DNA from: Heterodontus francisci
Lineage: Eukaryota
DNA length: 64,000 bases
Assembly (NCBI RefSeq): GCF_036365525.1
Contig: NC_090413.1
Coordinates: forward strand, 27,976,262-28,040,261
Direction of reading: 5' to 3'
Shown: positions 4,635-63,355 of the stretch, one piece after another
Position numbering within the stretch: the first letter of the stretch is position 1
How the letters are laid out: each line of letters starts with the position of its first letter
Position numbers and translations under genes: made by a program
Notes under the pieces: generated by a model
Seen by the model: the letters and a program-made list of their open reading frames with translations, nothing else
The model's database searches: none
What the model was told of the DNA's origin: nothing

Positions 4635-4685
4635 CTCGGGTTGGATGGCTTTGAAGACAGGAATGTCAAGTCGGGTGATTTGACT
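4635..4685 (-). CDS. RALGPS-family Ral GEF exon (SQITRLDIPVFKAIQPE), start of the CDC25/RasGEF domain
   Basis: Acceptor tgtttcag and donor GAG|gtatgg; 51 nt, phase 0/0. Closely matches recalled human RALGPS1 SQITLMDIPVFKAIQPE. Confidence 0.9.
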
Positions 4686-5112
4686 CTGAAACAAAGCAGA
4701 ATATCAGTGATCAACCACAGGCAATACACAGGATGTGAAGGAATCCTTTCACTAACCCCAGACTGCTAAAACAAGTTGCAAACACAGAGACAAAAACAAG
4801 CAACTTAACACTGCATTAAAATATTTAACAACCAGACATACACCCGTTCGTGCACAGTCTGCTCCTCGAGATTATTACTGACTCTTTCTGCTGAACAAAC
4901 ACCAGATTGTCCAGATTCGGTCCTAAATTGCTCTGCTGCACAATCCCACCTCCGTGACAAATCCTCTAGAACTTTCCTTTGTCCTGCCTTTGCTTCCTGC
5001 CCCATTCCCCACCTTGCTGGTTTGCATGGCCATTGCAGAGAGTTGCTTTGGGATATCGCAGATAATAACCAGAGGACACAGATTTTAAAAAGTTAATAAA
5101 AACAAAAAACGT

Positions 5113-5235
5113 CCAGCAGGTCTGGCAGCATCTGTGGAGAGAGAAACAGAGTTAACGTTTCAGCTCTGATGATTTCTGGCATTTTCTGTTTTTATTTTGG
5201 ATTTCCAACATCTGCAGTATTTTACTTTTGTCTTC
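5113..5235. mobile_element. Collapsed inverted Penelope pLTR-derived fragment
   Basis: 5113-5162 is the reverse complement of the GAAACGTTAACTCTG...GATGCTGCC tail at 27561-27610. It is followed by the same element's T-rich tail in + orientation. Confidence 0.55.
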
Positions 5236-5919
5236 TAGATTTAAGGGGATTTGCAAAAAAAAAAAAACCTTTATGCAACGAGTGGTTCGGATTTGGAATG
5301 CACTGCCTGAGGGGTTGGGAAAAAAGTGGGAGAGCCGCACTAGCTAGATTGTTCTCCAAAAAGAAGCCAGCACAGACTCTATGGGCAGAATGGCCTCCTT
5401 TGATACTATATTATTTTCAGATGCTATGGAGGGACAATCTTTTCAAAGGTTTTACACATTTGCTAATTGACAGAGCAGCTTACAAAACCACTGCAAGATG
5501 GGGCACCGGATAGACAAATTACACCTTCATAATCAAACTGGCTTCAGTTCCAGGCTGATGTGACCCCTGTCACCACAAACGAGGCTCAATGCTCCAGTAA
5601 CCAGACTGTCTGAGGTTTTCTAAAAAAAAAGTGCAAACTTTCAACCTCTATCTTTTGCAGACACAGACAGCAGCTGTTGATGGTTTTGTGAAATGATAAA
5701 GATACAAGCAGAAGTATGCAGAGATTTTAGATCTACATCAATGCACAAATTGGCAAAAAAATTCAAAAGTGCAGACTGTACCGCAAGCAGAGATTATTAC
5801 TCTCGCCTCCTCCCTTTGACCCAGCAAGAGGCTGATACCTCATCAGCCTGAATTCATCACCACCCCAGGAACAAGTTAGCTCAAATAAATAATGGGTTTG
5901 AATTGAGCATGTTCCCAGG

Positions 5920-6222
5920 GCAGTACAGAGGGAGTGCTGCACTGGAGGTGCCAACTTTTGGATGAGACGTGAAACCGAGGTCCTGTCTATCCTCAGGTGG
6001 CCCTATTTAAAAATGAGCTGGGGAGTGATGCCCTGTCAATATTTATCCTTTAAACAACTTCACAAAAACAATTTACCGATTATCTCATTGTCTGTGGGAG
6101 CTTGCTGCGCGCAAATTGGCTTCCTACGTTACAACAGTGAGTACACTTTAAAAGTACTCCATTGTCTGTGAAACGCTTTGGGACAACCTGAGTCGTGAAA
6201 GGCGCTATAGAAATGTAAATCT
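5920..6222 (+). mobile_element. DeuSINE/SacSINE-like SINE
   Basis: CAGTACAGAGGGAGTGCTGCACTG...TGTGGGAGCTTGCTG...AAAGGCGCTATAGAAATG with an L2-like tail. Other copies at about 7030-7190(-), 9980-10370(+), 16550-16950(-), 19045-19310(-), 23430-23690(-), 36115-36240(+), 38800-39000(-) and 50465-50530(+). Family name is from recall. Confidence 0.6.
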
Positions 6223-6806
6223 GTCACACATCAGTGAGTAAGGACACAAATAAAATCTGCAAACTCTGGCAAACCAGGTTTAAAAATCAGAGTGGGATAA
6301 AAAGTAAAACACAAGGTCAAAAATTTGAAATTGCTGCCATCCAAGAAATGTCAGGTCTTAAGATTCCTGTCTATCGGTATTTGTCCTCACTCTGAACAGT
6401 CTGCTCCAGTACCTTCCACGTTTACCACCTCCTTCCAGTTTTCTCTCCCTGACCCCAGGCTGCCTTTTAGCATCATGTTCGTTAGCCCAGTGAGCTATTT
6501 GACTGTGATAGGCACCACAATCAATCCCGACCCAGTTTTGGATTTTCATTTTGTCGTAGAGATCATTGGATTTTGTCGCTCCCAATTGCAGGGGCAGAGG
6601 TCATTGCAAACCAACTGGAATCAGATAACAACACAATTAGGAACTTACTGCCCCCACTCAGTACACTCCCCAGCAAGTCTCTGGGGGAAATCGTTTGAAT
6701 ATCTCACTGTTTACAGTCCGGACACCATTATAAATCCAATACTCATCATACATCTTTCTCCATCCCTCCCACTCTCGTTCCCTCTCTCCCTTCATGTTCT
6801 ACTCAC

Positions 6807-6911
6807 TGCAAACTGTTCCGGGGTTACCATGAGAACATCAAACACAACAGCATCGAAGCTCTTTCCGAGGCCGCAGGATCCTTTCTGTGTGGACGCCACA
6901 GATGAGCTCTT
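6807..6911 (-). CDS. RALGPS-family exon (KSSSVASTQKGSCGLGKSFDAVVFDVLMVTPEQFA)
   Basis: Acceptor ttgtctatttcag and donor GCA|gtgagt; 105 nt, phase 0/0. KSFDAVVFDVLxVTPE is characteristic of RALGPS1/2. Confidence 0.9.
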
Positions 6912-10512: not shown

Positions 10513-10566
10513 CTCTGATCCAAGATCTGACTCCATGTCACTGGGCAAGTCTTCAGTCATTTCCAT
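10513..10566 (-). CDS. Tentative start-codon exon of the RALGPS-like gene (MEMTEDLPSDMESDLGSE)
   Basis: Good acceptor (tgttttacag) immediately upstream of 10620, Kozak GGCATGG, 18 codons ending SE in phase 0 like recalled RALGPS2 ...TASE|KSSS. It needs a weak GC donor (GAG|gcaggg). Confidence 0.3.
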
Positions 10567-14523: not shown

Positions 14524-14544
14524 ATGATTTGTGCACAGAAAAAG
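14524..14544 (+). CDS. ST6GALNAC3-like coding exon 1 (MICAQKK)
   Basis: AGGATGA context and donor AAG|gtaaat, phase 0. Mirrors the short MACILK first exon of human ST6GALNAC3. Confidence 0.7.
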
Positions 14545-16289: not shown

Positions 16290-16493
16290 CGGAACGTTCT
16301 GGTAGCGGTGGCTCTGACTGGAGGTGTGACGTTCATTGTTGCCTTGGTGCACTACATCCATCAGTCTCCCTATCCCATAATACTCTCACAGTTGGCCGGT
16401 GAGTCTGGCCGCAGCAGCCGGACTCATTTTCTTGGTGCTTTTGGACAAGATGCCGAGGTGCTGCGAGGTTATGTTAGCCTGGCAGAGGAGCAG
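16290..16493 (+). CDS. ST6GALNAC3-like exon 2 (signal anchor and stem)
   Basis: tttttacccag|RNVLVAVALTGGVTFIVALVHY...RGYVSLAEEQ|gtatgt; 204 nt, phase 0/0. Confidence 0.85.
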
Positions 16494-17103: not shown

Positions 17104-17510
17104 CCTCTCGCACTCCGCTGTCAGCAGTGCAGCATTGTCTCCAGCTCTGGACAGATGCTGGGCACGAGCCTGGGAGCAGAGATCGACCAATCAGAGTGTG
17201 TTTGGAGGATGAACAATGCACCAACTGAGGGTTATCAGACTGACGTGGGCAGTAAGACTACAGTTAGAGTGGTGTCTCACACCAGCACCCCCCTGCTCCT
17301 CCGACAAGAACCATTCACCTCCCACCTCAACAGCTCCATCTACATCTTCTGGGGTCCTCAGCGGAACATGCGACGCGACGGGAAAGGCGTGGTCTACAAC
17401 ATCCTCAGGACCGTTCAAAATCACTTCCCATCTGCCAGGCTTTACATTCTGACCGAGGAGCAGATGAGATACTGTGACATCGCTTTTAAAAGAGAGACAG
17501 GGAAGGACAG
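17104..17510 (+). CDS. ST6GALNAC3-like exon 3 (sialylmotif L)
   Basis: CSIVSSSGQM...IDQSECVWRMNNAPT...DVG...RVVSHTS...ETGKDR; ctgcag acceptor and gtaagg donor; 407 nt, phase 0/2. Confidence 0.95.
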
Positions 17511-18056: not shown

Positions 18057-18164
18057 GGTGCTGTCTGGCTCCTATCTCAGTACTGGCTGGTTTACCTTCA
18101 TCTTGGCTATGGAAGCTTGCAGCACTATCCATGTGTATGGGATGATCAATGACACTTACTGCAG
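18057..18164 (+). CDS. ST6GALNAC3-like exon 4 (sialylmotif S)
   Basis: VLSGSYLSTGWFTFILAMEACSTIHVYGMINDTYC; ttccag acceptor and gtatca donor; 108 nt, phase 2/2. Confidence 0.95.
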
Positions 18165-19448: not shown

Positions 19449-19638
19449 AACCGAAGGACACAGAAACGTCCCATACCATTACTACGAAGCAAACGGACAG
19501 GAGGAGTGCGCAGAGTATTACATGCACGAGAATGCGAGATACGGAGGGCACAGGTTCATCACGGAGAAAAGCGTCTTCGCAAAGTGGGCGAAGGAGAGGA
19601 AGATCAAATTCTTCAATCCGACCTGGCAAATCTCCTGA
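19449..19638 (+). CDS. ST6GALNAC3-like exon 5 (motifs III and VS, stop codon)
   Basis: TEGHRNVPYHYYE...GGHRFITEKSVFAKWA...PTWQIS*. The joined CDS is 930 nt = 309 aa plus stop. Confidence 0.95.
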
Positions 19639-19713
19639 CACAAATGGAGCAGCTTCTCTAAGGATCAGGGAGTCTCACTCAAACCCACATTGGCAACACT
19701 GAAACAATGGGAC

Positions 19714-19886
19714 AATAAAGCAATGACTCTTCCACTTCGAATTTCAGAAATGCTAGAAATAAAAGGACCATATTCTCCAGTGTGATGACCAGTGTGGCTG
19801 TTACTTTGTCTTCAGCTGGAAAGACAGCTGGAGTGAAGCTGCATTGTTAGTTTGAGACTGTGGAACTTGAACTGGTTAGAAATAAA
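19714..19886 (+). terminator. Candidate polyadenylation signals
   Basis: AATAAA at 19714, 19758 and 19881, downstream of the stop codon. Confidence 0.4.
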
Positions 19887-20714
19887 TCCAGACAAAAGGG
19901 ACAAAAAGTCAGGAGAATCCAAAAGAAAAGTTGAAGAAAGTTTAGTTCATCTTTCTTGTATTTTAACTCTCCCACTACTAATATTTTTCTGCCAACACCT
20001 TGCAAACATTAATCATTAAAAGGAGCTAAGAAACTGTTTTAATTATTGTTCGCAATTTTAACTTTAGAAGGGTTTTGGTGCCCAGCTCTGCCCCGGTGAC
20101 CCGTGAGCACCAGGGTTTTTGTCTGATCAGATGTCTGCTGGTAACTGGGATCAATCCCAGGACACGTCGAAGTTCACCAGCCTCCAGTATCCCCCCTTGC
20201 TCCAGTTCAGGGTATTTTTTGGGCATCTTTCAGTTGTCGACTGAGAAGACCCAGGGTGGTAGGAACCAGTGTCAGTAACACAGCTGCCGGAAAGCAGCCG
20301 TTTCGCTACTGTCTCTCTCAGCAGCCCAGCCAACAAAAGCAAGAAATGTTGAACCTGCCAAATTCTTCAGTAAGGAGAGTGCATGTGACCTGGGGAACTT
20401 GTATTATTACAGGGTCAGTCTAGGCCAGGCCAGTTATACCAGTTATAGAAATCACATAATATAGCACAGAAAGAGGCCTTTAAACTCATCGTGCTTGTGC
20501 TGGCTCTTTGGTAGATCTATTCAATTAGTCCCACTCCCCTGTTCTTTCCACGTGGCCATGAAAATGTTTCTTTTTAATCATTTTATCCAATTCCCTTGCG
20601 AAAGTCACTATCAAACCTGCTTCCACCACCCTTTCACACAGCGCATTCCAGATGTTACAGATCGAGGTGGGAGGAGTTCACTGTTTATTCTGGTTCCACT
20701 TCTCCACAGGTCAA

Positions 20715-20816
20715 TACACACACACCCCTACCCCTACACACACACACACACCCCTACACCTACACACACACACACACCCCTACACACACACCCCTACACA
20801 CACACACCTACACACC
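20715..20816. repeat. (CA)n / CCCCTACACA microsatellite
   Basis: Read directly from the sequence. Confidence 0.9.
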
Positions 20817-20819
20817 TAT

Positions 20820-20927
20820 CTGGTTGTTGTGTTTTATTCTGGGATAAAAATAGAGTCTATGATTGACCATATCGGTGTGTGTCTCATAGACTCTACTTTT
20901 ATCCCAGAATAAAAACACATCAACCAG
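20820..20927. repeat. Near-perfect inverted repeat (arms about 43 bp, 21-nt loop)
   Basis: CTGGTTGTTGTGTTTTATTCTGGGATAAAAATAGAGTCTATGA pairs with TCATAGACTCTACTTTTATCCCAGAATAAAAACACATCAACCAG. Confidence 0.9.
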
Positions 20928-22355
20928 GTTTCTTTAATAAACAGCAAAACTATCAGATTATAAAATAAGTCTTAACCAGGAACAAAGCCAAGCACAAACA
21001 CAGATCGAAATATAAAAGCTTCCATTTTATCCTTTAACACATGCACTAACCAGAAAAACAAATATTTACTCGAGAGTTCTAATACAAAAAATAATATGTT
21101 GGCCAAAAATACTTGCTAATTCTTAAAGAAAAGAGAAGATACGAAAAGATGTCAGAAGTCCTCTTCTAGTTTGGTGTCCCAGCTATGTATAGACAACTCT
21201 CACTGGGATCTTCCTAGAACAGCTCTCATTAAGCAACATTGAAGATCAGTTTGGGCAGGCTTTCCAGAGAAAATGCACTAACAGGGATTTCAGACAGTTT
21301 CTTACACTTGCTACTCAAGAGAAGGAAAACTGGCAGGCTTTTTCAAAGAGCTGGAACAGATTGAGCTGGGTTTTGCTCCCTTGGCAAGTTTTCTCCAACT
21401 GTCTTTTCAAACCCTTGTCCACACCCCAACTCACTGTCCAAAGTGAAACCGAAAAAAGATGTCACAAGAATCGAGCCTCCTGACCCCTATAAATCTTGAC
21501 CTGTCACTTCTTTGTAAACATCTTTCCCCAAGTCAAAAACAATCCCTGCTGGGTAATTATTTGAAGACAGGTGCCTCCCAGTAACTTAACAATCCAGGCC
21601 TCTCAGTGACCCTTGTAAAAAAAACACATCCATGGACTCCTTTTCAGTTTTTAACCACACATCTTCAAAATTTAACAAAAAAAAGTGGAAGCACTCATAA
21701 CAGATCACAACAACTCACTGGGTTTAGGTTCTCCTCATCTCTGCTCTGGTAACATAGGAACATTGAAATTAGGAGCAGGAGTAGGCCATTCGGCCCCTCG
21801 AGCCTGCACAGTTTGATAAGATGACGGCTGATCTGAACATGACCTCAACTCCACTTCCCTGTCTGCCTTGTCTATCAAGAATTTAACTCAGCATCTCCTG
21901 CTGTCTGAGGAAGTCAATTCCATAGACTAACGACCCTCAAAGAAAAACTTTCTCCGTACGGTGCAGCTTAAATCGGTGTCCCTCTGGTTACTGACTCTTC
22001 TCGTCACTGGAAACAGTTTCTCCCTATTTACTCTATCAAAACCCACATAACCCGACACATGATCTGAAGCCAGTGAGGAGAGATCCAGCCAGATTTCCAG
22101 TTACTGATGGCTGTGTAGTGACTACACCTGCTGCCTGAGAACTTCATATGAGGACAGAATGGGGCTCAGGGGTGATGACTTCCAAAGTCGATTAGGCTGC
22201 TTGTATTATTTATGCTCAAACATTAGGATAGGCCACTTGAGAGAGTAAGCATCGGCCAGGGTCTCTGTACCCGGACATCAACTTGAAAATTAGGAATAAA
22301 GGTAATGACTATAAAAAGTGCTAGCTAATCTCCCATGGCATTTTACCCCATTAAA

Positions 22356-22582
22356 GCACCGCACTAGCTCAGTTGGCTAGACGGCTAGTGCATGATGCAG
22401 AAAGACACCAACTGCGCGGGTTCAATTCCCATACCGGCTGTGGTAGTCCATGGAGGCCTACCTCCTCGCCTTGCCCTCATGCTCGAGGAGTGGTGACCCT
22501 CAAACTATATCACCAACTCTCTCTCGCTCTCTAATCAGGAGAGATGCCTATGGTCCTTTGGGACTACGGCGAGAATAAATAA
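22356..22582 (+). mobile_element. tRNA-derived SINE
   Basis: A box TAGCTCAGTTGG at 22365 and B box GGTTCAATTCC at 22419, continuing into a non-tRNA body. Confidence 0.65.
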
Positions 22583-23953
22583 CAAATTTGATCAGGACTG
22601 CTGATTTATGGTGATAAAATAGTTAAATTCTCTTTGTCAAGTGAGCCAGCTGTGATTGGGAAGAGTTGCAAGTAGTAACCGTGATACAGGAGACGTGCAC
22701 CAAATCTGTAGCTCAGTATAAGACTGACTCAGTCGGAGATCACAACATCTCTCCACAAGATGGCAGCAAATGCTCACTTTTCCTTAATCTGTATTATACC
22801 GGGGACGGGATGGACTTGACCCTCTTTAAAAGGCAGTGGAAATCTGAAACTCTCCCCTTAAAAAGCTATGGATTCTGAGGGACAATTGGAGGTTTCAAAA
22901 CTCACATTGATCGATATTTGTTGGATAATAGGAATCAAAGCCAAAGAACTAAGGCAGGTAAATGGAGTGAGATACAGATTAACCAGAACCTAGTGCAGCA
23001 GGTTGACAGGGCTGAGTGATTTACGTCAGTTTCAATATTTCATTCAGGGCCCTTTCTTTTTAATATCACAAATTTAAGTTACAACATTCAAAATAGTTAT
23101 TCTTAATGTGAATGTCAGCGTGTGTGTGTGCACACCAGGGTGGCGAGGAGGAGTGTCACCATGTAGTCTTATTTTGATGAAAACCGAGGAGGGACGATAG
23201 TGCACTAAACACTTAGGTCAACATTCATTCCCTGAAATGGAATCAACAGCCCTGTGGGGACCAGCGGTGAAGCTGAACTGAAGTAGTGCACAGCAAGAGG
23301 CAACAGCTTCAGCCCAGTGCACACGGAATGATCTAATGACCTGTCTACTACAGTTCTATTTTAGGCTGCGAGAATGATTCAGTTCACAGCAACTGCAGGA
23401 AGTGACAAGATAAGAAATCATTTTAAATATTTGCATTTATATGGACTCTATCAATGAAACATTACTGTGTCACTGGACAATCTATTTTTGAAGTGTATAA
23501 CTGTTGTTGCATAAACACAACAGACACACAGATAACCAAGTAATCAATGTGTATTTGTGGTGTTGGTAGAGGTAGGAATGTCACTCAGATCATCACTACT
23601 CTTTGAATAATCCCCTGGGATCTTGAATATCCTCCTGATCATGTAGGCAGCATTCAGTGTAACATCTCACCAAACAGTGGCTTGACAATGTATGAGAAAC
23701 AATAGCTATACACAAGCTTTGTCAATCTGATTAGTAACACCTACAGCCTAGGAGTTGTTACAGAAACCACTTTCAAAAGAGAGAACAAGAAAATCAAGCA
23801 AGAGTTAGAGAAAGGAGCAAAGTATCGATAAAGTTTTCAGATTGACCATCAGTGTCAAATAAAGAGAGAAAAAACCTTTTTTCACATTGGATTTTACTAA
23901 CCTGTAACTGAAAATTCACAAGCTCCTTCCAATCTGCAAACTTCCCCCATCAA

Positions 23954-24763
23954 ACAGCAATTAAACTCACAATGACCTCAGGTAGTGTTACTTTTACAGC
24001 AATTAAACTCACAGTGACCTCAATTAGTGTTTTTTTTTACAGCAATTAAACTCAGTGATCTCAGGCTTTTTTTTTACAGAAATTAAACTCAGTGACCTCA
24101 GGTTGTGTTTCTTTTACAGCAATTAAACTCACAATGACCTCAGTTAGTGTTTTTTTTTTACAGCAATTAAACTCAGTGATCTCAGGTTGTGTTTCTTTTA
24201 CAGCAATTAAACTCACAGTGACCTCAGGTAGTATTGATTTACAGCAATTAAACTCACAGTGACCTCAGGTAGTATTGATTTACAGCAATTAAACTCACAG
24301 TGACCTCAGGTAGTATTGATTTACAGCAATTAAACTCAAAGTGACCTCAGGTAGTATTGATTTACAGCAATTAAACTCAAAGTGACCTCAGGTAGTATTG
24401 ATTTACAGCAATTAAACTCACAGTGACCTCAGGTAGTGCTTTTTACAGAAATTAAACTCACAGTGACCTCAGGTAGTGCTTCTTTTACAGCAATTCAACT
24501 CCAAGTGACCTCAGGCAGTGTTTTTTTTTACAGCAATTAAATTCACAGTGACCCCAGGCAGTCTTTATTTACAGCAATTGAACTCACAGTGACCTCAGGT
24601 AGTGTTTTTTTTTACAGCAATTAAATTCAGTGGCCTCAGGTAAATTTTTTTTTACAGCAATTAAACTCAGAGTGACCTCAGGTAGTGTTTTTTAATAGCA
24701 ATTAAATGCAGAGTGACCTCAGGCAGTCTTTATTTACAGCAATTGAACTCAGAGTGACTTCAG
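23954..24763. repeat. Tandem repeat of about 41 bp, about 20 copies
   Basis: Unit ACAGCAATTAAACTCACAGTGACCTCAGGTAGT plus a variable T-rich linker. Confidence 0.95.
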
Positions 24764-25384
24764 AGTGGTTGGTTTTAAAAGTTAATCTCAGCCTTACCCT
24801 GATGCTCACTGATCCCCCACCTTCCTTCCTATCCTAGAGAGGGAGGAAAAATTCTCGATCTCACTCACTCGGCCAGGGTTCAGTGACTCCTGACAGAAGT
24901 GTGTGGATAGCAAGGGATCTAGGGGTCCAGTGCAGTTGTGTTGTCTTTTGCTGATGCTGAACATCCAGTGTGAAGAGCAGAAACTTGGTTGAGGAAAGGA
25001 AAGAAAAGAAGAAAAAAAAAAGAGCCTCAATAAATCAGAATAAAGGCAATAAATTAAGAACAGAGGAAACAGACGGGGGAAAAAACAGCAACAAATGGAA
25101 AACACAAAGAACTTGATAAATAAATCAGAAGCTGCAGAAACTCAGTAGAGGCTGAGGTTTGATGTCAATTTATCAGCTGAGCTGACTGCAGTGAGTTAAA
25201 TCCAACTGTTGAAAGAAAAACAGAACTATGGAAATTCCCACACAAACAGGCGCTATTTAAAAAAAAACTCCAGGTTACATTAAAAAAAAATCAGATAAAG
25301 CCTCTTGGACTAAGTATGGGCTGCATTGGATCTGCTTTTTGGTTACACGACATTACCTAGGCAACGCCTCCCAGTGAAATAATG

Positions 25385-25775
25385 TAAATAAATAAATAAA
25401 TAAATAGGAATCCATCTGTACAGAACAGTCAGCTGGATGTAGCAGTGAGGGAGAGAGACAAGGAGAGAGAGAGAAAACCAAGGAGAGAAACAAATAGAGA
25501 TAGAGAAATAGAGAGGAAGAGCTAGAGAGATAAAGAGACAGAGAAAAAAAACAAAGGGAGAGGAAACAAACAGAGATAGAGAAATAGAGAGGAAGAGCAA
25601 GAGAGACAGAGAAAAAGATTGAGAGAGAAAGAAAGACCTGGAGACGGAACGAGGGAGATACACACACACAGGTGTAGACCGATGGAGAAACAGACAGAGA
25701 AATAAACCAAGAGATAGACAGAGTGTGACAGAGAGGGACACAGACGGAGACAGAGAGAGGGATACAGAGAGAGAG
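25385..25775. repeat. (TAAA)n and GA-rich low-complexity tract just upstream of the AK5-like ATG
   Basis: Read directly from the sequence. Confidence 0.8.
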
Positions 25776-25841
25776 CAGCAACATTAGCAGCAGGAAATTC
25801 TCGAGCATTACTGTCAGAAGGCAAACTGCAATCCTATTAGA

Positions 25842-25901
25842 ATGAGCAGCAGTGAAGCGAAAGATTACATTTCCAAAAGACAAATCCCTCTCCTTTTCGA
25901 G
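25842..25901 (+). CDS. AK5-like exon 1 (MSSSEAKDYISKRQIPLLFE)
   Basis: 60 nt, donor GAG|gtaagg. Aligns to recalled human AK5 MNTNDAKEYLARREIPQLFE (dimerisation/docking domain). Confidence 0.9.
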
Positions 25902-27640: not shown

Positions 27641-28569
27641 ATTGTGCATATCCTGACTCTCTGAATTCAGTGATGTTAAACCACAGCACCGGAGGTCATG
27701 CACTAGATTCAGAATGTTACGGGAAAACCAATCATTGTTCAAAGCTTTACAGCTGCACAGTGTTGCATGTAAATGCTATATGTGTGACATATACTACACA
27801 TTCTATACAATATGATATATCATTGATAGAAAGCGTACGGCGTCATTTTAAATGTCAGACTGCCACAGTGGGATTTAAACTGAACTTCTCTGGATTTTAA
27901 TTGTAATAACCCGTTTAGAAGCCTTCCTCCAAGCAGACCAGTTAGCCCCTCTTACTTAGACCCTCCTCAGCTTCTTATCACAAATCTCTGTCAATTGCTG
28001 AGCATGTGCTCGGGTGAACAAATGACTTCATCGTGGATGCTCAGTTAGTCTACAAAAGCCACTCCCAAGCTCTCACTTTGATTATTACCAGAGCTGAGAG
28101 TGAACTGCAGAATAGCTCTCCACAAGAACAGGGTGCCATAGCAACGCAAATACACCAGATTACCCAGAGGACTGAACAAACCAGGCTCAGGAAATACACA
28201 TTAATTAGATGGTGAGAACGCTGAACAATGTGACGAAGGAATGTGACTCTGTAAGTGAGGCTCGAGCTCAGTAATTGACCATTCATTGAATCATTCTGTC
28301 ACTCCTCTGAGGCTTTATTACAGCAGTAAATGCACTGGTGACAGTTTCAGCCCCTCAAAGCAATGTGTCACTTGTGAAGAGGTAATTACCTTCCATTGTC
28401 AGGTACCTAGAGAGGGCTGGAGTACCTCAGCCTCACTGCAGGAATGACACTGGTTATTAACAGTAAAAGCCTTTAGTGAGCACTCTGGAGCTGCTGAGAT
28501 TGGTAATGGTTCTCCTCAAGGTTACGACCAATGATCCGCATCAGTGACAAGCCGGGAAATTGCATTTAC

Positions 28570-34158: not shown

Positions 34159-34345
34159 AGTATGCTGACAGGGCTCATGTACCATCAGCCTGGTGACCCC
34201 ATTGAATATCTGGAGATGTGCCTCAATAAGGTCCGAGAGATTGGAGGCCTGGAGAAAGTACGATGGGACACGTTCATCATTCAGGAGAGACGGACACTGC
34301 CGCCAGTTGGTGGGAGCCAGGGAAGGAGAGCTATTTACCGGAGTG
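34159..34345 (+). CDS. AK5-like exon 2
   Basis: SMLTGLMYHQPGDPIEYLEMCL...VRWDTF...TLPP; 187 nt, phase 0/1. Confidence 0.95.
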
Positions 34346-35765: not shown

Positions 35766-35933
35766 CTCTCTCGGAGAGTCACAGTCTGGGACATGGACGC
35801 TATGATTGTCTCCCTCCAATTCATCAATTCTCCATAGAGAGCGACACTGACCTGTCAGAAACCGATGAGCTAATCGAGGAATACGTGGTGTTTGATCCAT
35901 CGAAACCGAGGCCCAGAATCATCCTGGTCATTG
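35766..35933 (+). CDS. AK5-like exon 3
   Basis: ...LPPIHQFSIESDTDLSETDELIEEYVVFDPSKPRPRIILVI; 168 nt, phase 1/1, donor gtaagg. Confidence 0.95.
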
Positions 35934-37652: not shown

Positions 37653-37825
37653 GAGGGCCAGCTAGTGGCAAGGGAACTCAAAGCATGAAAATAGCCGAAC
37701 GTTACGGATTTATTTACATATCAGTGGGGGAGCTCTTGCGGGAAAAGATGCTTCACAACGCAAGTAACAACAGGAAATGGGGCTTGATCGCGAAAATCAT
37801 AACAAACGGAGAGCTGGCACCTCAG
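37653..37825 (+). CDS. AK5-like exon 4 (P-loop)
   Basis: GGPASGKGTQSMKIAERYGFIYISVGELLR...KWGLIAKIITNGELAPQ; 173 nt, phase 1/0. Confidence 0.95.
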
Positions 37826-38650: not shown

Positions 38651-38764
38651 GAGACAACAATAACTGAGATTAAACAGCAGCTGATGCAGCATCCAGACGC
38701 ACGGGGCTTTGTGATTGACGGTTTCCCACGGGAGGTTTCCCAGGCAATCTGCTTCGATGATCAG
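38651..38764 (+). CDS. AK5-like exon 5
   Basis: ETTITEIKQQLMQHPDARGFVIDGFPREVSQAICFDDQ; 114 nt, phase 0/0. Confidence 0.95.
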
Positions 38765-44323: not shown

Positions 44324-44512
44324 ATTTGTGTGCCCGACCTGGTGATATTCCTGGCCTGTGCCAACTGCAGGCTGAGGGAGCGGCTGCAGAAACGGGCAGA
44401 GGAAGGACGACCTGACAACAATCCCAAAGCAATTCACCGTCGCCTCGTCACCTTCAAGCAAAACGCTGTGCCATTGGTCCAATATTATCAGGAGAAAAGC
44501 CTAATTGTAACG
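44324..44512 (+). CDS. AK5-like exon 6 (LID region)
   Basis: ICVPDLVIFLACANCRLRERLQKRAEEGRPDNNPKAIHRRLVTFKQNAVPLVQYYQEKSLIVT; 189 nt, phase 0/0. Confidence 0.95.
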
Positions 44513-53591: not shown

Positions 53592-53682
53592 TTTGACGCA
53601 GACAGAGAGGAAGAGGAGGTGTTTGAAGATATCAGGGCGACTGTGGATGGGAAACTCATCCCGAGCAAACAGCCAGCAGCGG
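53592..53682 (+). CDS. AK5-like exon 7
   Basis: FDADREEEEVFEDIRATVDGKLIPSKQPAA; ccacag acceptor and gtaagt donor; 91 nt, phase 0/1. Confidence 0.93.
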
Positions 53683-54582: not shown

Positions 54583-56581
54583 TGGGGTGTGGCCCCTGGT
54601 CCCCAGGGTCTGGTCATCAATGTCCTCGGGGTCTGGTCCCTGGGGTCTGGTCATCAGTGTCCTGGGGGTCTGGTCCCTGGGGTCTGGTCATCTGTGTCCT
54701 CGGGGTCTGGTCCCTGGGGTCTGGTCAACAGTGTCCTGGGGGTCTGGTCCCTGGGGTCTGGTCATCTGTGTCCTCGGGGTCTGGTCCCTGGGGTCTGGTC
54801 AACAGTGTCCTGGGGGTCTGGTCCCTGGGGTCTGGTCATCAGTGTCCTGGGGGTCTGGTCCCTGGGGTCTGGTCATCAGTGTCCTCGGGGTCTGGTCCTC
54901 GGGGTCTGGTCCTCTGTGTCCTCGGGGTCTGGTCCTCTGTGTCCTCGGGGTCTGGCCATCAGTGTCCTCGGGGTCTGGTCCCTGGGGTCTGGTCATCAGT
55001 GTCCTCGGGGTCTGGACCCTCGGGGTCTGGTCCTCTGTGTCCTCGGGGTCTGGTCCTCTGTGTCCTCGGGGTCTGGTCCTCTGTGTCCTGGGGGTCTGGT
55101 CCTCTGTGTCCTCGGGGTCTGGTCCTCTGTGTCCTCGGGGTCTGGTCATCAGTGTCCTCGGGGTCTGGTCCCTGGGGTCTGGTCATCAGTGTCCTCGGGG
55201 TCTGGTCCCTGGGGTCTGGTCATCAGTGTCCTCGGGGTCTGGTCCTCTGTGTCCTCGGGGTCTGGTCCTCTGTGTCCCGGGGGTCTGGTCCTCTGTGTCC
55301 TTGGGGTCTGGTCTTCGGGGTCTGGTCCTCTGTGTCCTGGGGGTCTGGTCCTCTGTGTCCTCGGGGTCTGGTCTTCGGGGTCTGGTCCTCTGTGTCCTCG
55401 GGGTCTGGTCTTCGGGGTCTGGTCCTCTGTGTCCTCGGGGTCTGGTCCTCTGTGTCCTGGGGGTCTGGTCCTCTGTGTCCTGGGGGTCTGGTCTTCGGGG
55501 TCTGGTCCTCTGTGTCCTGGGGGTCTGGTCTTCGGGGTCTGGTCCTCTGTGTCCTGGGGGTCTGGTCCTCTGTGTCCTCGGGGTCTGGTCCTCTGTGTCC
55601 TCGGGGTCTGGTCCTCTGTGTCCTCGGGGTCTGGTCTTCGGGGTCTGGTCCTCTGTGTCCTGGGGGTCTGGTCCTCTGTGTCCTCGGGGTCTGGTCCTCT
55701 GTGTCCTCGGGGTCTGGTCTTCGGGGTCTGGTCCTCTGTGTCCTCGGGGTCTGGTCCTCTGTGTCCTCGGGGTCTGGTCTTCGGGGTCTGGTCCTCTGTG
55801 TCCTGGGGGTCTGGTCCTCTGTGTCCTCGGGGTCTGGTCCTCTGTGTCCTCAGGGTCTGGTCTTCGGGGTCTGGTCCTCTGTGTCCTCGGGGTCTGGTCC
55901 TCTGTGTCCTCGGGGTCTGGTCCTCTGTGTCCTCGGGGTCTGGTCCTCTGTGTCCTGGGGGTCTGGTCCTCTGTGTCCTCGGGGTCTGGTCCTCTGTGTC
56001 CTCGGGGTCTGGTCTTCGGGGTCTGGTCCTCTGTGTCCTCGGGGTCTGGTCCTCTGTGTCCTCGGGGTCTGGTCTTCGGGGTCTGGTCCTCTGTGTCCTG
56101 GGGGTCTGGTCCATGTGTCCTCGGGATCTGGTCCTCTGTGTCCTCGGGGTCTGGTCCTCAGTGTCCTCGGGGTCTGGTCCCTGGGGTCTGGTCATCAGTG
56201 TCCTCGGGGTCTGGACCCTCGGGGTCTGGTCCTCTGTGTCCTGGGGGTCTGGTCCTCTGTGTCCTGGGGGTCTGGTCCTCTGTGTCCTCGGGGTCTGGTC
56301 CTCAGTGTCCTCGGGGTCTGGTCCCTGGGGTCTGGTCCTCTGTGTCCTCGGGGTCTGGACCCTCGGGGTCTGGTCCCTGGGGTCTGGTCATCAGTGTCCT
56401 CGGGGTCTGGACCCTCGGGGTCTGGTCCTCTGTGTCCTGGGGGTCTGGTCCTCTGTGTCCTGGGGGTCTGGTCCTCTGTGTCCTCGGGGTCTGGTCCTCA
56501 GTGTCCTCGGGGTCTGGTCCCTGGGGTCTGGTCCTCTGTGTCCTCGGGGTCTGGACCCTCGGGGTCTGGTCCTCTGTGTCC
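54583..56581. repeat. Composite 23-bp / 14-bp minisatellite
   Basis: GGGGTCTGGTCCTCTGTGTCCTC interleaved with GGGGTCTGGTC(TTC/CCT). Confidence 0.95.
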
Positions 56582-57028
56582 ACCCTGGGTGAATGTTGCT
56601 GCTTAATTTTTCTGGAACTTGCAGATCCAGAGTGTTATCTTCACCCACATGGAAATAACATCTCCGAATATTTCTCACTCAAACATTGATGTTCCATGCC
56701 CACTCTACACTATTTTTAGTGCTCTAGTTAACACTTATGTGTTAAATTCTTGGCTATACTACTTTCGCCACAGAGATACGGGTTTAAAGCAAGGCCGATG
56801 GGAAATTAACACAATTTAAAACTCGCACCCAGAATTAAGGAAACCCTTTAAACCCTCAATAGCTGTCTTCATTTGCCAGTCCAGTATCTAGGACTGTCGA
56901 GTGTTTCACATTATCTTGGATCTCAGGTAGGAAATGGTTTGGAAATAATTACGCTCTGGGAATATTGTGTTATTGTGTTGAATGTTGCTGCAGCTTTGTC
57001 TAATTCTTTCATCTGTCCCCTCACTCAG

Positions 57029-57087
57029 GCCCCAGTGAACTCAACCTCTGCCTGATTGCTGATGTCAGTTCAGATACTGAGGAGCAG
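57029..57087 (+). CDS. AK5-like exon 8 (GPSELNLCLIADVSSDTEEQ)
   Basis: cactcag acceptor and gtaata donor; 59 nt, phase 1/0. Resembles recalled human GSSDLDPSMILD...SDYEDQ. Confidence 0.75.
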
Positions 57088-58199
57088 GTAATATCAGTAA
57101 TTCCTTATTGTGTCCGCTTGTGCATCCTCCTTCCTCGATACCCTTTTCCTAAAGGTTTGAGGCTATTCCGCAGGTGCTGACCACACTTACCCTGAGGAGC
57201 CACACTGAAGCAAGCAGGCTATTTGCTCCTGAAAGGCATCACAGCCAAACCTGAATCCCTCTGCCCAACACCCAGTGCAGTTGGATGACCAGGTGTTGGA
57301 TGATTGGGTGTCGGGGGTGATCGAGTGATCAAGTGTCAAGTGATGGGGTGTCGGGTGATCGAGTTTTGATCTCCAGTGGTCTTCCTTTAGCTCTGGCCGT
57401 GCTGTGACATCCCTTCTCAGGTTTGTGGAGCTTTGATACCCAGTCTTAACTGGCCCAGCAGAGCCTAGAATGTTCATTCTTCATGTGTGTGTTGGCTGAC
57501 TCTTTGACTAGGGGAGGCAGCACCAAGAGTCTGATATTTATAAAATCCAGCTCCCAGCATTAGTGGCTGATTAGGAGTCAGAGCCCAGGTTGATTCGAAC
57601 CTTCCCCAGCCCAACTGAGAGAGTGTAGGAGATTGGAATTAAAGGCACATCTACACTTAACCCCTCACTAAGGTGTTCTGTGAGACACATTACAGGACAA
57701 GTCTCCTTTAAAAAAACAAAGGTACATTTCTGCAACTTGCAGCCCATTCCACAGCTATCAGGTTTGAAAACTAACATTGGATTGGTTTCCATGGAAACTG
57801 TGACGCAGATTCTGTAGGAAGAGATGAGGCTGCTTTCAGCACCATTCCCTCTTCCACATTGACTGAGGGCCCAAAGAGCATCAAATTCCTTATGGGGATT
57901 CCCAACCCTCCAGATTGCCCTGAAGTGTCCACTGCTAGGAGGAAATCTGGGAGAAAAATCATTGGGGCAATTAAAAATAGTTTTTAAACATTTCTGATTG
58001 TTATTTATGGAAACGGGAGAACAGGCTGTTTGACCGGGTGGGGCGGTTTGAGGTGGGAGGTCATGTGATAAAATCTCCAGGACTACGTCCAACCCGAGTT
58101 GGCAAGCTGACTTCCTTGTCAACATTTCCATGGAAACTGCCTCCTTAGCCAATCAGATCCACCTCAAACTTTCAGTGTCCTCATCTCAGTGAGGATCAG

Positions 58200-58975
58200 A
58201 TGGGAGAGAGGGAGAGAGAAAGGGTCAGAAAAAGAAAAAAGAGGGGGAGGGAGAGAGGGAGCAGGGAAAGGAAAGGGGAAAGACAGAAAAAATGGTGAGA
58301 GAGAGAAAAAGGGAGAGAGCATGAGAAGTTTATGGATGGGGGTGAGAGGGGGAGGGAGGGATGGAGGCGAGAGAGAGGGAGGGATGGAGGCGAGAGGGAG
58401 GGAGGGATGGAGGCGAGAGGGAGGGAGGGAAGGATGGAGGCGAGAGGGAGGGAGGGAAGGATGGAGGCGAGGGGGAGGGAGGGATGGAGGCGGGAGGGAG
58501 GGAGGGAGGGATGGAGGCAAGAGTGAGGGAGGGAGGGATGGAGGCAAGGGGGAGGGAGGAAGGGATGGAGGCGAGAGGGAGGGAGGGATGGAGGCGAGAG
58601 GGAGGGAGGGATGGAGGCAAGAGTGAGGGAGGGAGGGATGGAGGCGAGGGGGAGGGAGGAAGGGATGGAGGCGAGAGGGAGGGAGGGAGGGATGGAGGCG
58701 AGGGGGAGGGAGGAAGGGATGGAGGCGAGAGGGAGAGAGGGAGGGATGGAGGTGAGGGGGAGGGAGGCGAGAGGGAGGGATGGAGGTGAGAGAGAGGGAG
58801 GGAGGGATGGAGGCGAGAAGAAGGGAGGGATGGAGGCGAGAGGGAAAGTGGGATGGAGGAGAGAAGGAGGAAGGGATGGAGGCGAGGGGGAGGGAGGCAG
58901 TGGGAGAAGGAAGGGGAGAATATGAAAGGGAAAGGAAGGAAGGAGGGAGTGTGGGGGAGAGAGAGAGATGGAGAG
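58200..58975. repeat. Purine-rich minisatellite GGGATGGAGGCGAGA(GGGA)n
   Basis: Read directly from the sequence. Confidence 0.9.
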
Positions 58976-60122
58976 GTTGGTTGTTTATCTGAATCAATGG
59001 CTGACAGGCCCTGTTCCATTAGAAAGGGCAAAGTGAACCATTTCCAGGTTCAATCCAGGACCCCGCCCCCGAGCAGCAGTGAGTGTGGGAGCTCCTGTCC
59101 CACTCTTCAATGGATAGTGACACACCTGTGCCAATATCAGGAAAACCTTTAAATTCCATGGATAAAGGTTTGACCCAATAGCAGCACCTGTATTTTGGGG
59201 AGTCAGTTTTGCAGAGACTCTGTTCTGTTCTGTTTGTCTGTCCTGCTGTTTCTCTCTCTCTTTCCTCTCTGCACAATAATGATTGCTTTAACTGCAATCA
59301 CGAGCTGCCTTTGAGGAGTGTACGGAGGAGGGGAATCAAATATATTTAGAATCTATTTTGTTGCACAATTGTCCCCGACACACAACCATGATCTGAGGTG
59401 GACAATCTGAGCGGTTAGTTCAAGGACAGAGCGAAGGTTCGTAGCTGGTTAGCAACCCTCCAGGAGAGTCCTGCAATTAATCTCCTGGACACACAGAGTA
59501 ATAATGATGTCTTATTAATGTTTTCTTTGCACCCATCATTTATTACTTTTAAAAGTATTGGAGGTTGGGCGGGGGGAGTTAAAATGGGCTATTTGACTGG
59601 GTCAGGTGGTTACAGGCGGGCGGTTTTGTGATGGAAGCTCCCGGAATCTGGAAGCCAGAGTTGGCAACTCAAATTTCCAAAGATGGGAAAAATAAGAGTT
59701 TCTTGATGCGAATTGGAGGGTATCAAAGCCGAGAGCTTGTAGTGGGAGAGAGGGAGGGAGGAGTTTGAGTAAAGAACAGGTCTCCATTTCAGCTGGAGGA
59801 GACGACACAGACTGGGAAAGTACTCGAGTCGAGGCTCACATCACTGATCACCAACTTGGGTGGGAAAACTCCGGAGTTCTCACATGGTATCAGAATGTTG
59901 CTGCCACCCATTGAAGCAGATGCCAGACTTCAGGAGGAGAGACGGAGTGGCTGTGCCTCTTCCTCCCCTTTCCCAGCACAGGCACGACAGGCTGAATGGC
60001 CTCATCCTGTCATTTTGATGATTTGAATGACTGTATGTGTGAGCTTGTGGATAATCTGGGGTTGTAACTGACTGGGTCAGGCTGGTTCATGATATTCTTT
60101 CCTGCTCTGTATGTTATAACAG

Positions 60123-60159
60123 GTCAGAGATTCTGCCTCCGGTGAGGAGTCCCTGCAAG
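60123..60159 (+). CDS. AK5-like exon 9 (VRDSASGEESLQ)
   Basis: ataacag acceptor and gtcagt donor; 37 nt, phase 0/1. Resembles recalled human ...GEDTMG. Confidence 0.6.
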
Positions 60160-60549
60160 GTCAGTATCCTCGAGACTCTGCGTTAATAGTCACAGCCAAC
60201 ATGTGTAGCAAATGCAAACCATCCCTGTGACTCAGCACAGGATAGAGAGAAGTGTCGAACCTGGAGCTGCACATTCAGCTGTGCCAAGAGACAAGAGGAG
60301 GCTCTCGTTGTCACTCAAACACATTGGGGGAAGTGTTAACTCATAGAAATGGGTGATTATAAATCAGTCGCCTGTTATATACCCACCCGGTATCTCATCC
60401 ATCAACTTCGATAGAAAGGAAGTTGTTTGTGGTCTATGACAGGCACTGATTTCATATCATCAAAAGTTCAAATGTCCCCATGGGGTGAATGCAGTCACAC
60501 ATCCTGAGATTGGGCAGTGCCAGAGATACAAAACAGGCACAAAGTAAAT

Positions 60550-63048
60550 CCCCCACTCACTCCCCACATTCCCCACTCACTCCCCACATTCCCCACTCAC
60601 TCCCCACATTCCCCACTCACTCCTCACATTCCCCACCCACTCCCCACTCATTCCCCACTCACTCCCCACATTCCCCACTCACTCCCCACATTCCCCACTC
60701 ACTCCCCACTCACTCCCCACTCACTCCCCACTCACTCCCCACATTCCCCACTCACTCCCCACATTCCCCACTCACTCCCCACATTCCCCACTCACTCCCC
60801 ACTCACTCCCCACTCACTCCCCACTCACTCCCCACTCACTCCCCACATTCCCCACTCACTCCCCACACTCCCCACATTCCCCACTCACTCCCCACATTCC
60901 CCACTCACTCCCCACATTCCCCACTCACTCCCCACTCACTCCCCACTCACTCCCCACTCACTCCCCACTCACTCCCCACATTCCCCACTCACGCCCCACA
61001 TTCCCCACTCACTCCCCACATTCCCCACTCACTCCCCACATTCCCCACTCACTCCCCACATTCTCCACTCACGCCTCACATTCCCCACTCACTCCCCACA
61101 TTCCCCACTCACTCCCCACATTCCCCACTCACTCCCCACATTCCCCACTCACTCCCCACATTCCCCACTCACTTCCCACATTCTCCACTCACGCCCCACA
61201 TTCCCCACTCACTCCCCACATTCCCCACTCACTCCCCACTCACTCCCCACTCACTCCCCACATTCCCCACTCACTCCCCACATTCCCCACTCACTCCCCA
61301 CATTCCCCACTCACTTCCCACATTCTCCACTCACGCCTCACATTCCCCACTCACTCCCCACATTCCCCACTCACTCCCCACATTCCCCACTCACTCCCCA
61401 CATTCCCCACTCACTCCCCACATTCCCCACTCACGCCCCACATTCCCCACTCACGCCCCACATTCCCCACACACGCCCCACATTCCCCACTCACGCCCCA
61501 CATTCTCCACTCACGCCCCACATTCCCCACATTCCCCACTCACTCCCCACTCACTCCCCACTCACTCCCCACTCACTCCCCACTCACTCCCCACATTCCC
61601 CACTCACTCCCCACATTCCCCACTCACTCCCCACATTCCCCACTCACTCCCCACATTCCCCACTCACTTCCCACATTCTCCACTCACGCCCCACATTCCC
61701 CACTCACTCCCCACTCACTCCCCACATTCCCACTCACTCCCCACATTCCCCACTCACTCCCCACATTCCCCACTCACTCCCCACATTCCCCACTCACTTC
61801 CCACATTCTCCACTCACTTCCCACATTCTCCACTCACTCCCCACATTCCCCACTCACTCCCCACATTCCCCACTCACTCCCCACATTCCCCACTCACGCC
61901 CCACATTCCCCACTCACGCCCCACATTCCCCACTCACGCCCCACATTCCCCACTCACGCCCCCCATTCCCCACTCACGCCCCCCATTCCCCACTCACGCC
62001 CCAAATTCCCCACTCACGCCCCACATTCCCCACTCACGCCCCACATTCCCCACTCACGCCCCACATTCCCCATTCACTCCCCACATTCCCCACTCACTCC
62101 CCACATTCCCCACTCACTCCCCACATTCCCCACTCACGCCCCACATTCCCCACTCACTCCCCACATTCCCCACTCACTTCCCACATTCTCCACTCACGCC
62201 TCACATTCCCCACTCACTCCCCACATTCCCCACTCACTCCCCACATTCCCCACTCACTCCCCACATTCCCCACTCACTCCCCACATTCCCCACTCACTCC
62301 CCACATTCCCCACTCACTCCCCACATTCCCCACTCACTTCCCACATTCTCCACTCACGCCCCACATTCCCCACTCTCCCCACATTCCCCACTCACTCCCC
62401 ACTCACTCCCCACATTCCCCACTCACTTCCCACATTCTCCACTCACGCCCCACATTCCCCATTCGCTCCCCACTCGCTCCCCACATTCCCCACTCACTCC
62501 CCACATTCCCCACTCACTCCCCACATTCCCCACTCACTCCCCACATTCCCCACTCACTCCCCACATTCCCCACTCACTCCCCACATTCCCCACTCACTCC
62601 CCACATTCCCCACTCACTCCCCACATTCCCCACTCACTCCCCACATTCCCCACTCACTCCCCACATTCCCCACTCACTCCCCACATTCCCCACTCACTCC
62701 CCACATTCCCCACTCACTCCCCACATTCCCCACTCACTCCCCACATTCCCCACTCACTTCCCACATTCCCCACTCACTCCCCACATTCCCCACTCACTCC
62801 CCACATTCCCCAGTCACGCCCCACATTCCCCACTCACGCCCCACATTCCCCACTCACTCCCCACATTCCCCACTCACTCCCCACATTCCCCACTCACTCC
62901 CCACATTCCCCACTCACTCCCCACATTCCCCACTCACGCCCCACATTCCCCACTCACGCCCCACATTCCCCACTCACTCCCCACTCACTCCCCACTCACT
63001 CCCCACTCAATCCCCACTCACTCCCCACATTCCCCACTCACTCCCCAC
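60550..63048. repeat. 20-bp C-rich minisatellite with 11-bp subunits
   Basis: CCCCACTCACTCCCCACATT and CCCCACTCACT. Confidence 0.97.
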
Positions 63049-63150
63049 CCATTCTTTTCAATTTATTTCAATGAGCCTGTTTGACTCAATTACAAAGATC
63101 AGCCTCACCCCCAGGTGCTGTGTGTCTGACAGGACGATGCAGTGTGCACA

Positions 63151-63266
63151 CTGTGGGCAGTGTGTGTGTACCGCGGGCAGTGTGCGTGTACCGCGGGCAG
63201 TGTGCGTGTACCGCGGGCAGTGTGCGTGTACCACGGGCAGTGTGCGTGTACCGCGGGCAGTGTGTG
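63151..63266. repeat. 20-bp CpG-rich tandem repeat, about 5 copies
   Basis: TGTGCGTGTACCGCGGGCAG. Confidence 0.9.
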
Positions 63267-63332
63267 ATGGCAGACCTGGTGTTTATTTGTCTAGCTTTGC
63301 GGACGGGTACAGATGTGCCTTTCCTGTTGCAG

Positions 63333-63355
63333 GTGTCAGTATAAATTGCAAATAA
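63333..63355 (+). CDS. Candidate terminal exon of the AK5-like gene (GVSINCK*)
   Basis: Acceptor cctttcctgttgcag, phase 1 fits exon 9, TAA at 63353-63355, ATTAAA at 63431. Confidence 0.4.

Follow-up and report, generated by a model that had tools for sequence, protein, structure and literature searches.

Introduction

The closest described relatives of the locus considered here are two sets of genes that PMC10972751 (supplement 6) assigns to different copies of the ancestral chromosome CLG-M: RALGPS2, ANGPTL1 and ST6GALNAC3/5 to copy alpha1, and RALGPS1, ANGPTL2 and ST6GALNAC4/6 to copy alpha2. ANGPTL1 and ANGPTL2 are antisense passengers inside RALGPS2 and RALGPS1, respectively (PMC6371847), and an Angptl1-2-6 cluster has been described (PMC5237311). 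Six vertebrate ST6GALNAC subfamilies are recognised in a 2023 review (PMC10225777), whose sialylmotif scheme is followed below and which describes the history of the family as not yet reconstructed. The locus itself is a stretch of 64,000 nucleotides from the horn shark, Heterodontus francisci (NC_090413.1, positions 27,976,262 to 28,040,261), called the window below.

A first-pass annotation made from the letters of the window had proposed that a RALGPS-like gene on the minus strand, an ST6GALNAC3-like gene and an AK5-like gene, both on the plus strand, were extra paralogues left by the vertebrate genome duplications and kept in cartilaginous fish on a 19p13-like microchromosome. The evidence presented here makes it highly probable that the three are copies of RALGPS2, ST6GALNAC3 and AK5 on a beta-1 microchromosome, dating from the second of the two rounds of duplication (1R and 2R). 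This microchromosome is likely to be the one represented by skate LER39, gar LG6, bird chromosome 30 and human 19p13.2, where the three genes appear to have been lost.

Three genes and their elasmobranch relatives

The exon fits and the identity of the translations with NCBI models bear out the three genes and their strands. The H. francisci models come from a contig of 31,884,378 bp and match the window exons at 100%; those of the ST6GALNAC3-like and AK5-like genes have adjacent RefSeq numbers (XP_067876930 and XP_067876932-934). The window holds only parts of two of these genes, a point on which the first-pass annotation was silent: the RALGPS-like gene runs off the left end and the AK5-like gene off the right. 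The start of the span that had been given for the block, 4635 to 63355, is correct, being that of the last RALGPS exon present; the end belongs to an open frame in a tandem repeat that is outside the AK5-like model.

A protein search with the ST6GALNAC3-like product gave 513 matches at E ≤1e-30 among 786 candidates, the best 120 of which were listed. Fifteen of these 120, at 76-100% identity, are elasmobranch (one of them, a Logan row, clusters with skates), and all the others listed are at 65% or less. The AK5-like product gave 13 matches among 29 candidates, of which 11 were elasmobranch and two from Polypterus, and all three matches (five candidates) to the RALGPS-like product were elasmobranch. 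At least two of the three genes lie on one chromosome in 12 elasmobranch species, linkage in species other than the horn shark being judged from equal contig size and near RefSeq numbers, not from flanking DNA. All three share a contig size in Heptranchias; the ST6 and RALGPS genes do so in Leucoraja, Amblyraja, Rhinoraja and Mustelus, and the ST6 and AK5-like genes in Heterodontus, two Mobula, Cetorhinus, S. torazame, C. punctatum and Stegostoma. The RefSeq numbers of the linked genes are adjacent in three skates.

The simplest alternative is that these are plain shark orthologues of RALGPS1 or RALGPS2, ST6GALNAC3 and AK5 that have been rearranged and have evolved fast. In its favour, the evidence for coexisting canonical copies comes from elasmobranchs other than the horn shark (four species for ST6, skate and bamboo shark for RALGPS), and no shark canonical AK5 is among the sequences compared. 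Against it, a separate canonical ST6GALNAC3 stands beside the window-type gene in Heptranchias, Chiloscyllium punctatum, Pristiophorus and Scyliorhinus torazame, on a different contig in Heptranchias (window-type 22.46 Mb, canonical 89.40 Mb) and in Chiloscyllium punctatum (64.5 and 135.9 Mb). RALGPS genes lie on three different chromosomes in both skate and bamboo shark, and the orthologue topology for AK5 is rejected by the test described below. Plain orthology is thus largely refuted already, and we regard it as scarcely credible.

Chromosomal identity

In skate, the ST6 and RALGPS orthologues lie on a contig of 12,333,785 bp, a length that is exactly the end coordinate of Leri_39C. In SI Table 3 of PMC10115646, LER39 is the 1-beta copy opposite LER10 (= GGA8, chicken chromosome 8), with the remark 'LOC6 that is not GGA23; missing in chicken'. 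The same source makes LER31 (= GGA17) the 2-alpha copy and marks the 2-beta copy of M 'missing in all gnathostomes?'. Of the suggestion that the block was a third or fourth copy, then, the third stands and the fourth does not. The baits St6galnac3-2 and Ppan are placed at 8.55 and 8.50 Mb of Leri_39C, about 50 kb apart, with Ralgps2-3 on Leri_10C and Ralgps1-2 on Leri_31C (PMC10115646). The position on the beta partner chromosome was found in skate, and extends to the horn shark by orthology. A chicken-28-like chromosome was also considered and ruled out, as the same table makes LER29 (= GGA28) a different segment. SI Table 5 of that paper lists two skate genes of interest as differentially expressed: St6galnac3-2 (LE16408), with a base mean of 187, and Ralgps2-1 (LE16245), with one of 47. 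Ppan (LE16469) and Angptl2-2 (LE16465) have ids in this range.

A third bamboo-shark RALGPS, at chr8:105.533 Mb, is labelled CLG-M beta1 in one of 19 family rows of PMC10972751 (supplement 6), and that table has no beta1 RALGPS row for gar, frog or chicken. The gene is flanked by two PPAN entries (105.50-105.52 Mb) and by a beta1 ANGPTL (105.558 Mb), with which it has consecutive ids and a start 25 kb away. On gar LG6 the beta1 ANGPTL and ppan are separated by 10 kb, with olfm2b and notch3 nearby (PMC10972751), and finch chromosome 30 is part of gar LG6 (PMC8040251). The order at human 19p13.2 is RDH8, C3P1, SHFL, ANGPTL6, PPAN, P2RY11, with no RALGPS, ST6GALNAC or AK gene in the human gene list of PMC13700139. 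We infer that the beta1 ANGPTL is ANGPTL6, both from its proximity to PPAN and from the Angptl1-2-6 cluster. The skate location and the PPAN/ANGPTL neighbourhood, therefore, substantiate the proposed 19p13-like microchromosome and narrow it to 19p13.2 and bird chromosome 30, and the RALGPS gene of the window is likely to be the lost host gene of human ANGPTL6. The tandem pair of bamboo-shark PPAN entries (chr8:105.50-105.52 Mb, PMC10972751) may be a split model or a duplication.

Phylogenetic evidence

The trees place both the ST6GALNAC3-like and the AK5-like genes outside the orthologue clades, as sisters to the canonical genes. The AK5 tree was built from the N-terminal half of 35 rows picked from the matches, from which multi-domain invertebrate and short fragment rows were mostly omitted, and it holds neither a chimaera nor a coelacanth row, nor canonical AK5 of any shark. 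The AK5 rows of catfish, bowfin, tortoise and frog, herring and wrasse ak5l, and the lizard, viper, crocodile, platypus and lamprey rows were named by look-up; the remaining rows were grouped by resemblance. Eight shark and two bichir rows form one clade (100/97) that is sister to canonical AK5 (98/98), with the ak5l-type and lamprey rows outside both. In an approximately unbiased (AU) test with 25 rows, forcing the bichirs to group with canonical AK5 was rejected (p = 0.011), and eight alignment columns unite sharks and bichirs while none unites bichirs and canonical AK5. As the bichir AK5-like proteins group with the shark clade, the AK5 duplication therefore predates the split between sharks and bony vertebrates. 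The block had been described as kept in cartilaginous fish, which is so, though not exclusively, given the bichir and reedfish AK5-like proteins in this clade. In reedfish the AK5-like gene is on a 100.95-Mb contig and ST6GALNAC3 on one of 170.8 Mb, whereas in bowfin AK5 and ST6GALNAC3 share a scaffold.

The ST6 tree comprised 39 rows chosen from about 135. The window clade (100/99) is sister to ST6GALNAC3 of sharks and bony vertebrates together (98/93), with ST6GALNAC4 and ST6GALNAC6 outside, and four of its species hold a separate canonical copy. Lungfish and sturgeon proteins named 'ST6GALNAC3-like' were considered as members of the window clade but group with canonical ST6GALNAC3.

Several points, besides the reliance on other elasmobranchs for the canonical copies, weigh against a 2R origin. 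For the RALGPS gene, four of the five orthologues are named 'RalGPS1-like' by NCBI and one 'RalGPS2-like'; the affinity to RALGPS2 comes from an Atlas feature search, in which RalGPS2-named clusters come first, and from a motif rather than from a RALGPS tree; and what connects the bamboo-shark beta1 RALGPS with the window clade is elimination and the skate location rather than sequence. An extra bamboo-shark member of the ST6 family is on an unplaced scaffold and unlabelled (PMC10972751). In the AK5 alignment three columns unite the shark clade and canonical AK5 against the bichirs, the tree has no shark canonical AK5 as a control, and the base of the tree of the second AK domain is not resolved. 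Long branches meet at the root of the ST6 trees, and a duplication of ST6GALNAC3 in sharks alone is not rejected in two AU tests with 25 rows each (p = 0.408 with LG+G4, 0.309 with a mixture model).

This last result leaves room for a segmental duplication of canonical ST6GALNAC3-AK5 specific to cartilaginous fish, which was then moved next to RALGPS on beta-1 and evolved fast. Such an origin would also suit the restriction of the ST6-like clade, which has no bony-fish member among the 120 matches listed, and the adjacency of RALGPS and ST6, which is not ancestral (see below). It does not account for the bichir AK5-like proteins joining the shark clade, for which the support values, the AU test and the eight columns to none all speak. 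Moreover, the best ST6 tree pairs the shark canonical gene with its bony counterparts, the gar gene (74%) is nearer to shark canonical ST6GALNAC3 than the window gene is (65%), and the genes sit on exactly the chromosome that a 2R origin predicts. A shark-specific duplication is, therefore, considered very unlikely.

Age of the arrangement

A hamster read-through model (P0017) contains ST6GALNAC4, ST6GALNAC6 and AK1 in that order, and the order at human 1p31 is presumably ST6GALNAC3, ST6GALNAC5, PIGK, AK5. An ST6GALNAC gene followed by an AK gene on one strand is an old arrangement. RALGPS and ST6GALNAC genes are on the same chromosome in lamprey, hagfish, gar, chicken and bamboo shark, but are about 4-73 Mb apart in every case (PMC10972751). 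The 4-kb head-to-head spacing seen in the window is therefore likely to be derived, probably brought about when genes on the beta chromosome were rearranged and lost. Direct adjacency of RALGPS and ST6GALNAC as the ancestral state was rejected, as it was not seen on the alpha-1, alpha-2, lamprey and hagfish copies. An old RALGPS-ST6GALNAC-AK linkage had been proposed, and this holds at the level of the chromosome and for ST6GALNAC-AK, but not for the immediate neighbourhood of RALGPS and ST6GALNAC.

A derived adjacency means that rearrangement did happen, and with the sampling gaps in each gene tree this could be read as a mixed origin, in which RALGPS is a true beta-1 ohnologue and the ST6 or AK gene arose by a small-scale duplication before the shark/bony split and joined it later. 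However, both trees have the same topology, alpha-1 with the window gene and alpha-2 outside, and the order and orientation of ST6GALNAC and AK are those of the 9q34-type read-through. A single doubling, moreover, accounts for all three genes. We consider a mixed origin very unlikely.

With the 2R origin preferred, the following history may be proposed. Before 1R, a single chromosome (CLG-M) would have carried RALGPS, an ANGPTL gene inside it, and a run of ST6GALNAC3/4, ST6GALNAC5/6 and AK genes; linkage of RALGPS, ANGPTL and ST6GALNAC at chromosome level is in the published table (PMC10972751). 1R would have given a 9q33-34 line (RALGPS1, ST6GALNAC4/6, ak5l/AK1) and a 1p/1q line. The trees and the chromosome identity suggest that 2R then split the latter into alpha-1 (RALGPS2, ST6GALNAC3/5, AK5) and beta-1 (the window genes). 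Beta-1 would subsequently have lost its ST6GALNAC5-type gene and PIGK and been rearranged, bringing RALGPS head-to-head with ST6GALNAC. Most bony vertebrates would have lost all three genes and retained the passenger ANGPTL6 beside PPAN, with bichirs retaining the AK5 copy.

Gene structures and predicted products

The ST6GALNAC3-like gene has five exons, all with AG/GT boundaries, and its translation is identical to XP_067876930.1 (309/309). All five exons match the model: exon 1, with the ATG (14524..14544, +); exon 2, encoding the membrane anchor and stem (16290..16493, +); exon 3, with sialylmotif L (17104..17510, +); exon 4, with sialylmotif S (18057..18164, +); and exon 5, with motifs III and VS and the stop (19449..19638, +). 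Spliced contigs from sequencing runs of two studies, which we guessed to be RNA, connect exons 1-2-3 and 4-5 and extend back to 14353; those of one study differ by 0-1 letters. With the introns removed in the contigs of both studies, the gene is therefore spliced as modelled. Joins between RALGPS exons were not among the contig matches listed. The NCBI isoform X2 skips exon 4 and would be without sialylmotif S. The product has the layout of a type II membrane protein and scores 117.6 bits with PF00777 (cut-off 23). Alignment showed that sialylmotifs L, S, III and VS are kept, including the VS histidine. ST6GalNAc III-like activity is therefore predicted, the putative product being a Golgi alpha-2,6-sialyltransferase acting on GalNAc of sialylated core-1 structures or gangliosides.

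The AK5-like gene occupies nine exons in the window, from the ATG at 25842 to 60159, and these encode a sequence identical (359/359) to the first 359 of the 550 residues of XP_067876932.1. Exon 1 of isoform X1 (25842..25901, +) was placed by splice fit to the model and the alternative first exon of NCBI isoform X2 (28209..28250, +) by tblastn and the model. Exons 2 (34159..34345), 3 (35766..35933), 4 (37653..37825), 5 (38651..38764), 6 (44324..44512), 7 (53592..53682), 8 (57029..57087) and 9 (60123..60159), all on the plus strand, match the model; alignment places the P-loop of kinase domain 1 in exon 4 and its LID region in exon 6. The exons for domain 2 lie to the right of the window, and this domain was read from the NCBI model.

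In that model PF00406 matches in two stretches (261.6 bits), which correspond to two ADK domains bearing a P-loop and the catalytic arginines, and the product is predicted to be a two-domain adenylate kinase. The roles of these residues are those familiar from adenylate kinases. Domain 1 keeps its arginines but has a G-to-A change in the P-loop, a one-residue deletion in the LID and a D-to-N change in RxDD, all common to bichirs. Domain 2, aligned to Xenopus AK1, keeps all the AK1-type catalytic arginines and RxDD; in domain 2 of the bichir, frog and catfish proteins, in contrast, this residue set is partly lost.

An ak5l-type N-terminal half is joined to AK1 in the long AK1 of Xenopus tropicalis (P0348) and in a lamprey model (P0170), and such halves are present in teleosts, lizard, viper, crocodile and platypus (P0199, P0242, P0231, P0256, P0279). 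By sequence, AK1 has the appearance of a second half derived from a two-domain gene of the AK5 type. Single-domain 'AK1-like' proteins of 225 aa in newt (P0296, P0333) form a branch of their own, neither AK1 nor clearly AK5, and it is possible that they are a remnant of another ohnologue. The idea that they are remnants of the AK5 copy in the window was not retained, the second-domain tree being without a resolved base. A diverged single-domain protein of Hemitrygon akajei (P0263, on a 91.7-Mb contig) falls inside the second-domain clade of the window gene (100/100) and is possibly a partial duplicate or a retrocopy.

Three 5' coding exons of the RALGPS-like gene, encoding the 70 N-terminal residues, are in the window, the remainder lying to its left. 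Coding exon 2 (6807..6911, −; AG/GT, phase 0) is 72-81% identical to elasmobranch RalGPS-like proteins, and coding exon 3 (4635..4685, −; AG/GT), at the start of the RasGEF/CDC25 domain, 73-82% (P0134-P0136). The likely first coding exon (10513..10566, −; ATG at 10566) has 54 nt, phase 0 and a GC donor, GCAGGG. Its tblastn matches are to the N-termini of the Heptranchias and Mustelus RalGPS-like proteins (44% over 27 aa and 71% over 14 aa, E 0.2-1.2). Placed without a horn shark model, and with weak matches and its GC donor, it is the least certain exon. The Heptranchias orthologue (P0136) has a RasGEF (CDC25) domain without RasGEF_N and a C-terminal PH domain, and a PH-domain Ral exchange factor is the predicted product.

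Intergenic regions and repeats

The RALGPS-like and ST6GALNAC3-like genes are head-to-head with start codons 3.96 kb apart, and a shared promoter region is possible (10566, − / 14353-14524, +). The gap of about 6.2 kb that had been reported between the ST6 and AK genes also stands: 6,203 bp (19639..25841) separate the ST6 stop from the AK5-like ATG. At the equivalent position we take the canonical copy to carry ST6GALNAC5 and PIGK. None of the 73 stop-free open reading frames (ORFs) of at least 40 aa in the gap reached a Pfam cut-off, with one sub-threshold hit (E = 0.002). Searches by tblastn with ST6GALNAC4, ST6GALNAC6 and ST6GALNAC3 as queries found no second sialyltransferase there, the matches being the known ST6 exons only; PIGK was not among the queries and short PIGK remnants could remain. 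A scan of the RALGPS region for hidden genes gave none of 90 ORFs at the Pfam cut-off and one sub-threshold hit, although such scans overlook short exons and missed the true RALGPS exons themselves.

In six-frame reading the window consists of spliced vertebrate genes amid retroelement remnants and minisatellites. Remnants are found in the AK5-like introns at 26608-27225 (+), 30272-32815 (−), 48022-49530 (+) and 51258-52929 (+); from their ORF motifs we take them to be a Penelope-like endonuclease, two CR1/L2-like elements and one RTE-like reverse transcriptase ORF (502 aa). Long minisatellite arrays with strong GC skew, at 40500-44200, 53700-56700, 58100-59050, 60500-63100 and 63600-64000, swell the AK5-like introns and yield long spurious ORFs. 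There is an N gap at 53207-53393.

Comparison with known systems

All three genes are already modelled by NCBI as '-like', and the beta1 RALGPS stands without comment in the table of PMC10972751. No literature naming or discussing the block, including under the names RALGPS3 or ST6GalNAc VII, was found in a search that left most subscription journals outside its coverage. A preprint on Jhc1 deals with a gene in ralgps1 and not with the block.

The RasGEF and PH architecture of RALGPS1 and RALGPS2 is common to the Heptranchias orthologue of the window gene, which strongly matches the human RALGPS1 CDC25 and mouse PH structures. The window gene differs in being a third locus. Its presence may explain the solitary position of human ANGPTL6, in contrast to ANGPTL1 and ANGPTL2 inside RALGPS genes: the host has likely been deleted around it, and this loss would be a natural test of whether regulation of a nested gene requires its host. 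For the beta-1 microchromosome (bird 30/19p13.2), which is poorly assembled, the block also provides additional markers.

With ST6GALNAC3 (GT29, PF00777; alpha-1; chicken 8, gar LG10, human 1p31), the window gene shares 64-67% identity over the catalytic part, the four sialylmotifs and a sister position in the tree; its five-exon coding layout is presumably also that of the human gene. It differs in having a separate clade and chromosome and no ST6GALNAC5 neighbour, and in being elasmobranch-only among the 120 matches listed. Its coding span is only 5.1 kb (14524-19638), while human ST6GALNAC3 presumably extends over hundreds of kb. It is a candidate seventh ST6GalNAc subfamily, and would fill a gap in a family whose vertebrate history is, according to PMC10225777, still to be reconstructed.

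The AK5-like gene has the same N-terminal segment and two ADK domains as AK5, with about 70% identity in the N-terminal half, and its clade is sister to canonical AK5. It differs in its altered domain 1 and in a domain 2 that keeps the AK1-type set. Teleost ak5l and the long AK1 proteins are likewise 'AK5-like' paralogues of the same family, but are only 53-58% identical and fall outside the clade of AK5 and the window gene; this group includes herring and wrasse ak5l and the lizard, viper, crocodile, platypus and Xenopus long AK1 proteins. Identity of the window gene with teleost ak5l was thus ruled out, as the two do not group in the trees. The database label 'AK5-like' therefore covers at least two different ohnologue lines, and AK1 is tied to a two-domain ancestor.

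A wider proposal, to which we would give slightly less than an even chance, joins these comparisons. Sharks and rays may keep the complete ancestral home of human ANGPTL6, with an unnamed host (RALGPS3), a seventh ST6GalNAc and a third AK5/AK1 kinase, the catalytic domains of the kinase being divided among the copies. AK1 would then derive from the second domain of the alpha-2 copy, set free from the first; in bony-vertebrate AK5 the first domain would be the conserved one, and in the shark beta-1 copy an AK1-like second domain would be intact while the first would have drifted.

As a class, differentially lost 2R ohnologues are known, and the window genes are apparently a new and unnamed set of them. 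The main text of PMC10115646, as far as seen, does not name these genes, but they may figure in its list of 68 differentially retained chondrichthyan 2R ohnologues. The cases described there, such as wnt6b and a cspg5 paralogue, are of the same kind, with the beta copy kept. Like them, the window genes appear to have been lost in bony lineages, the AK5-like gene of bichirs excepted.

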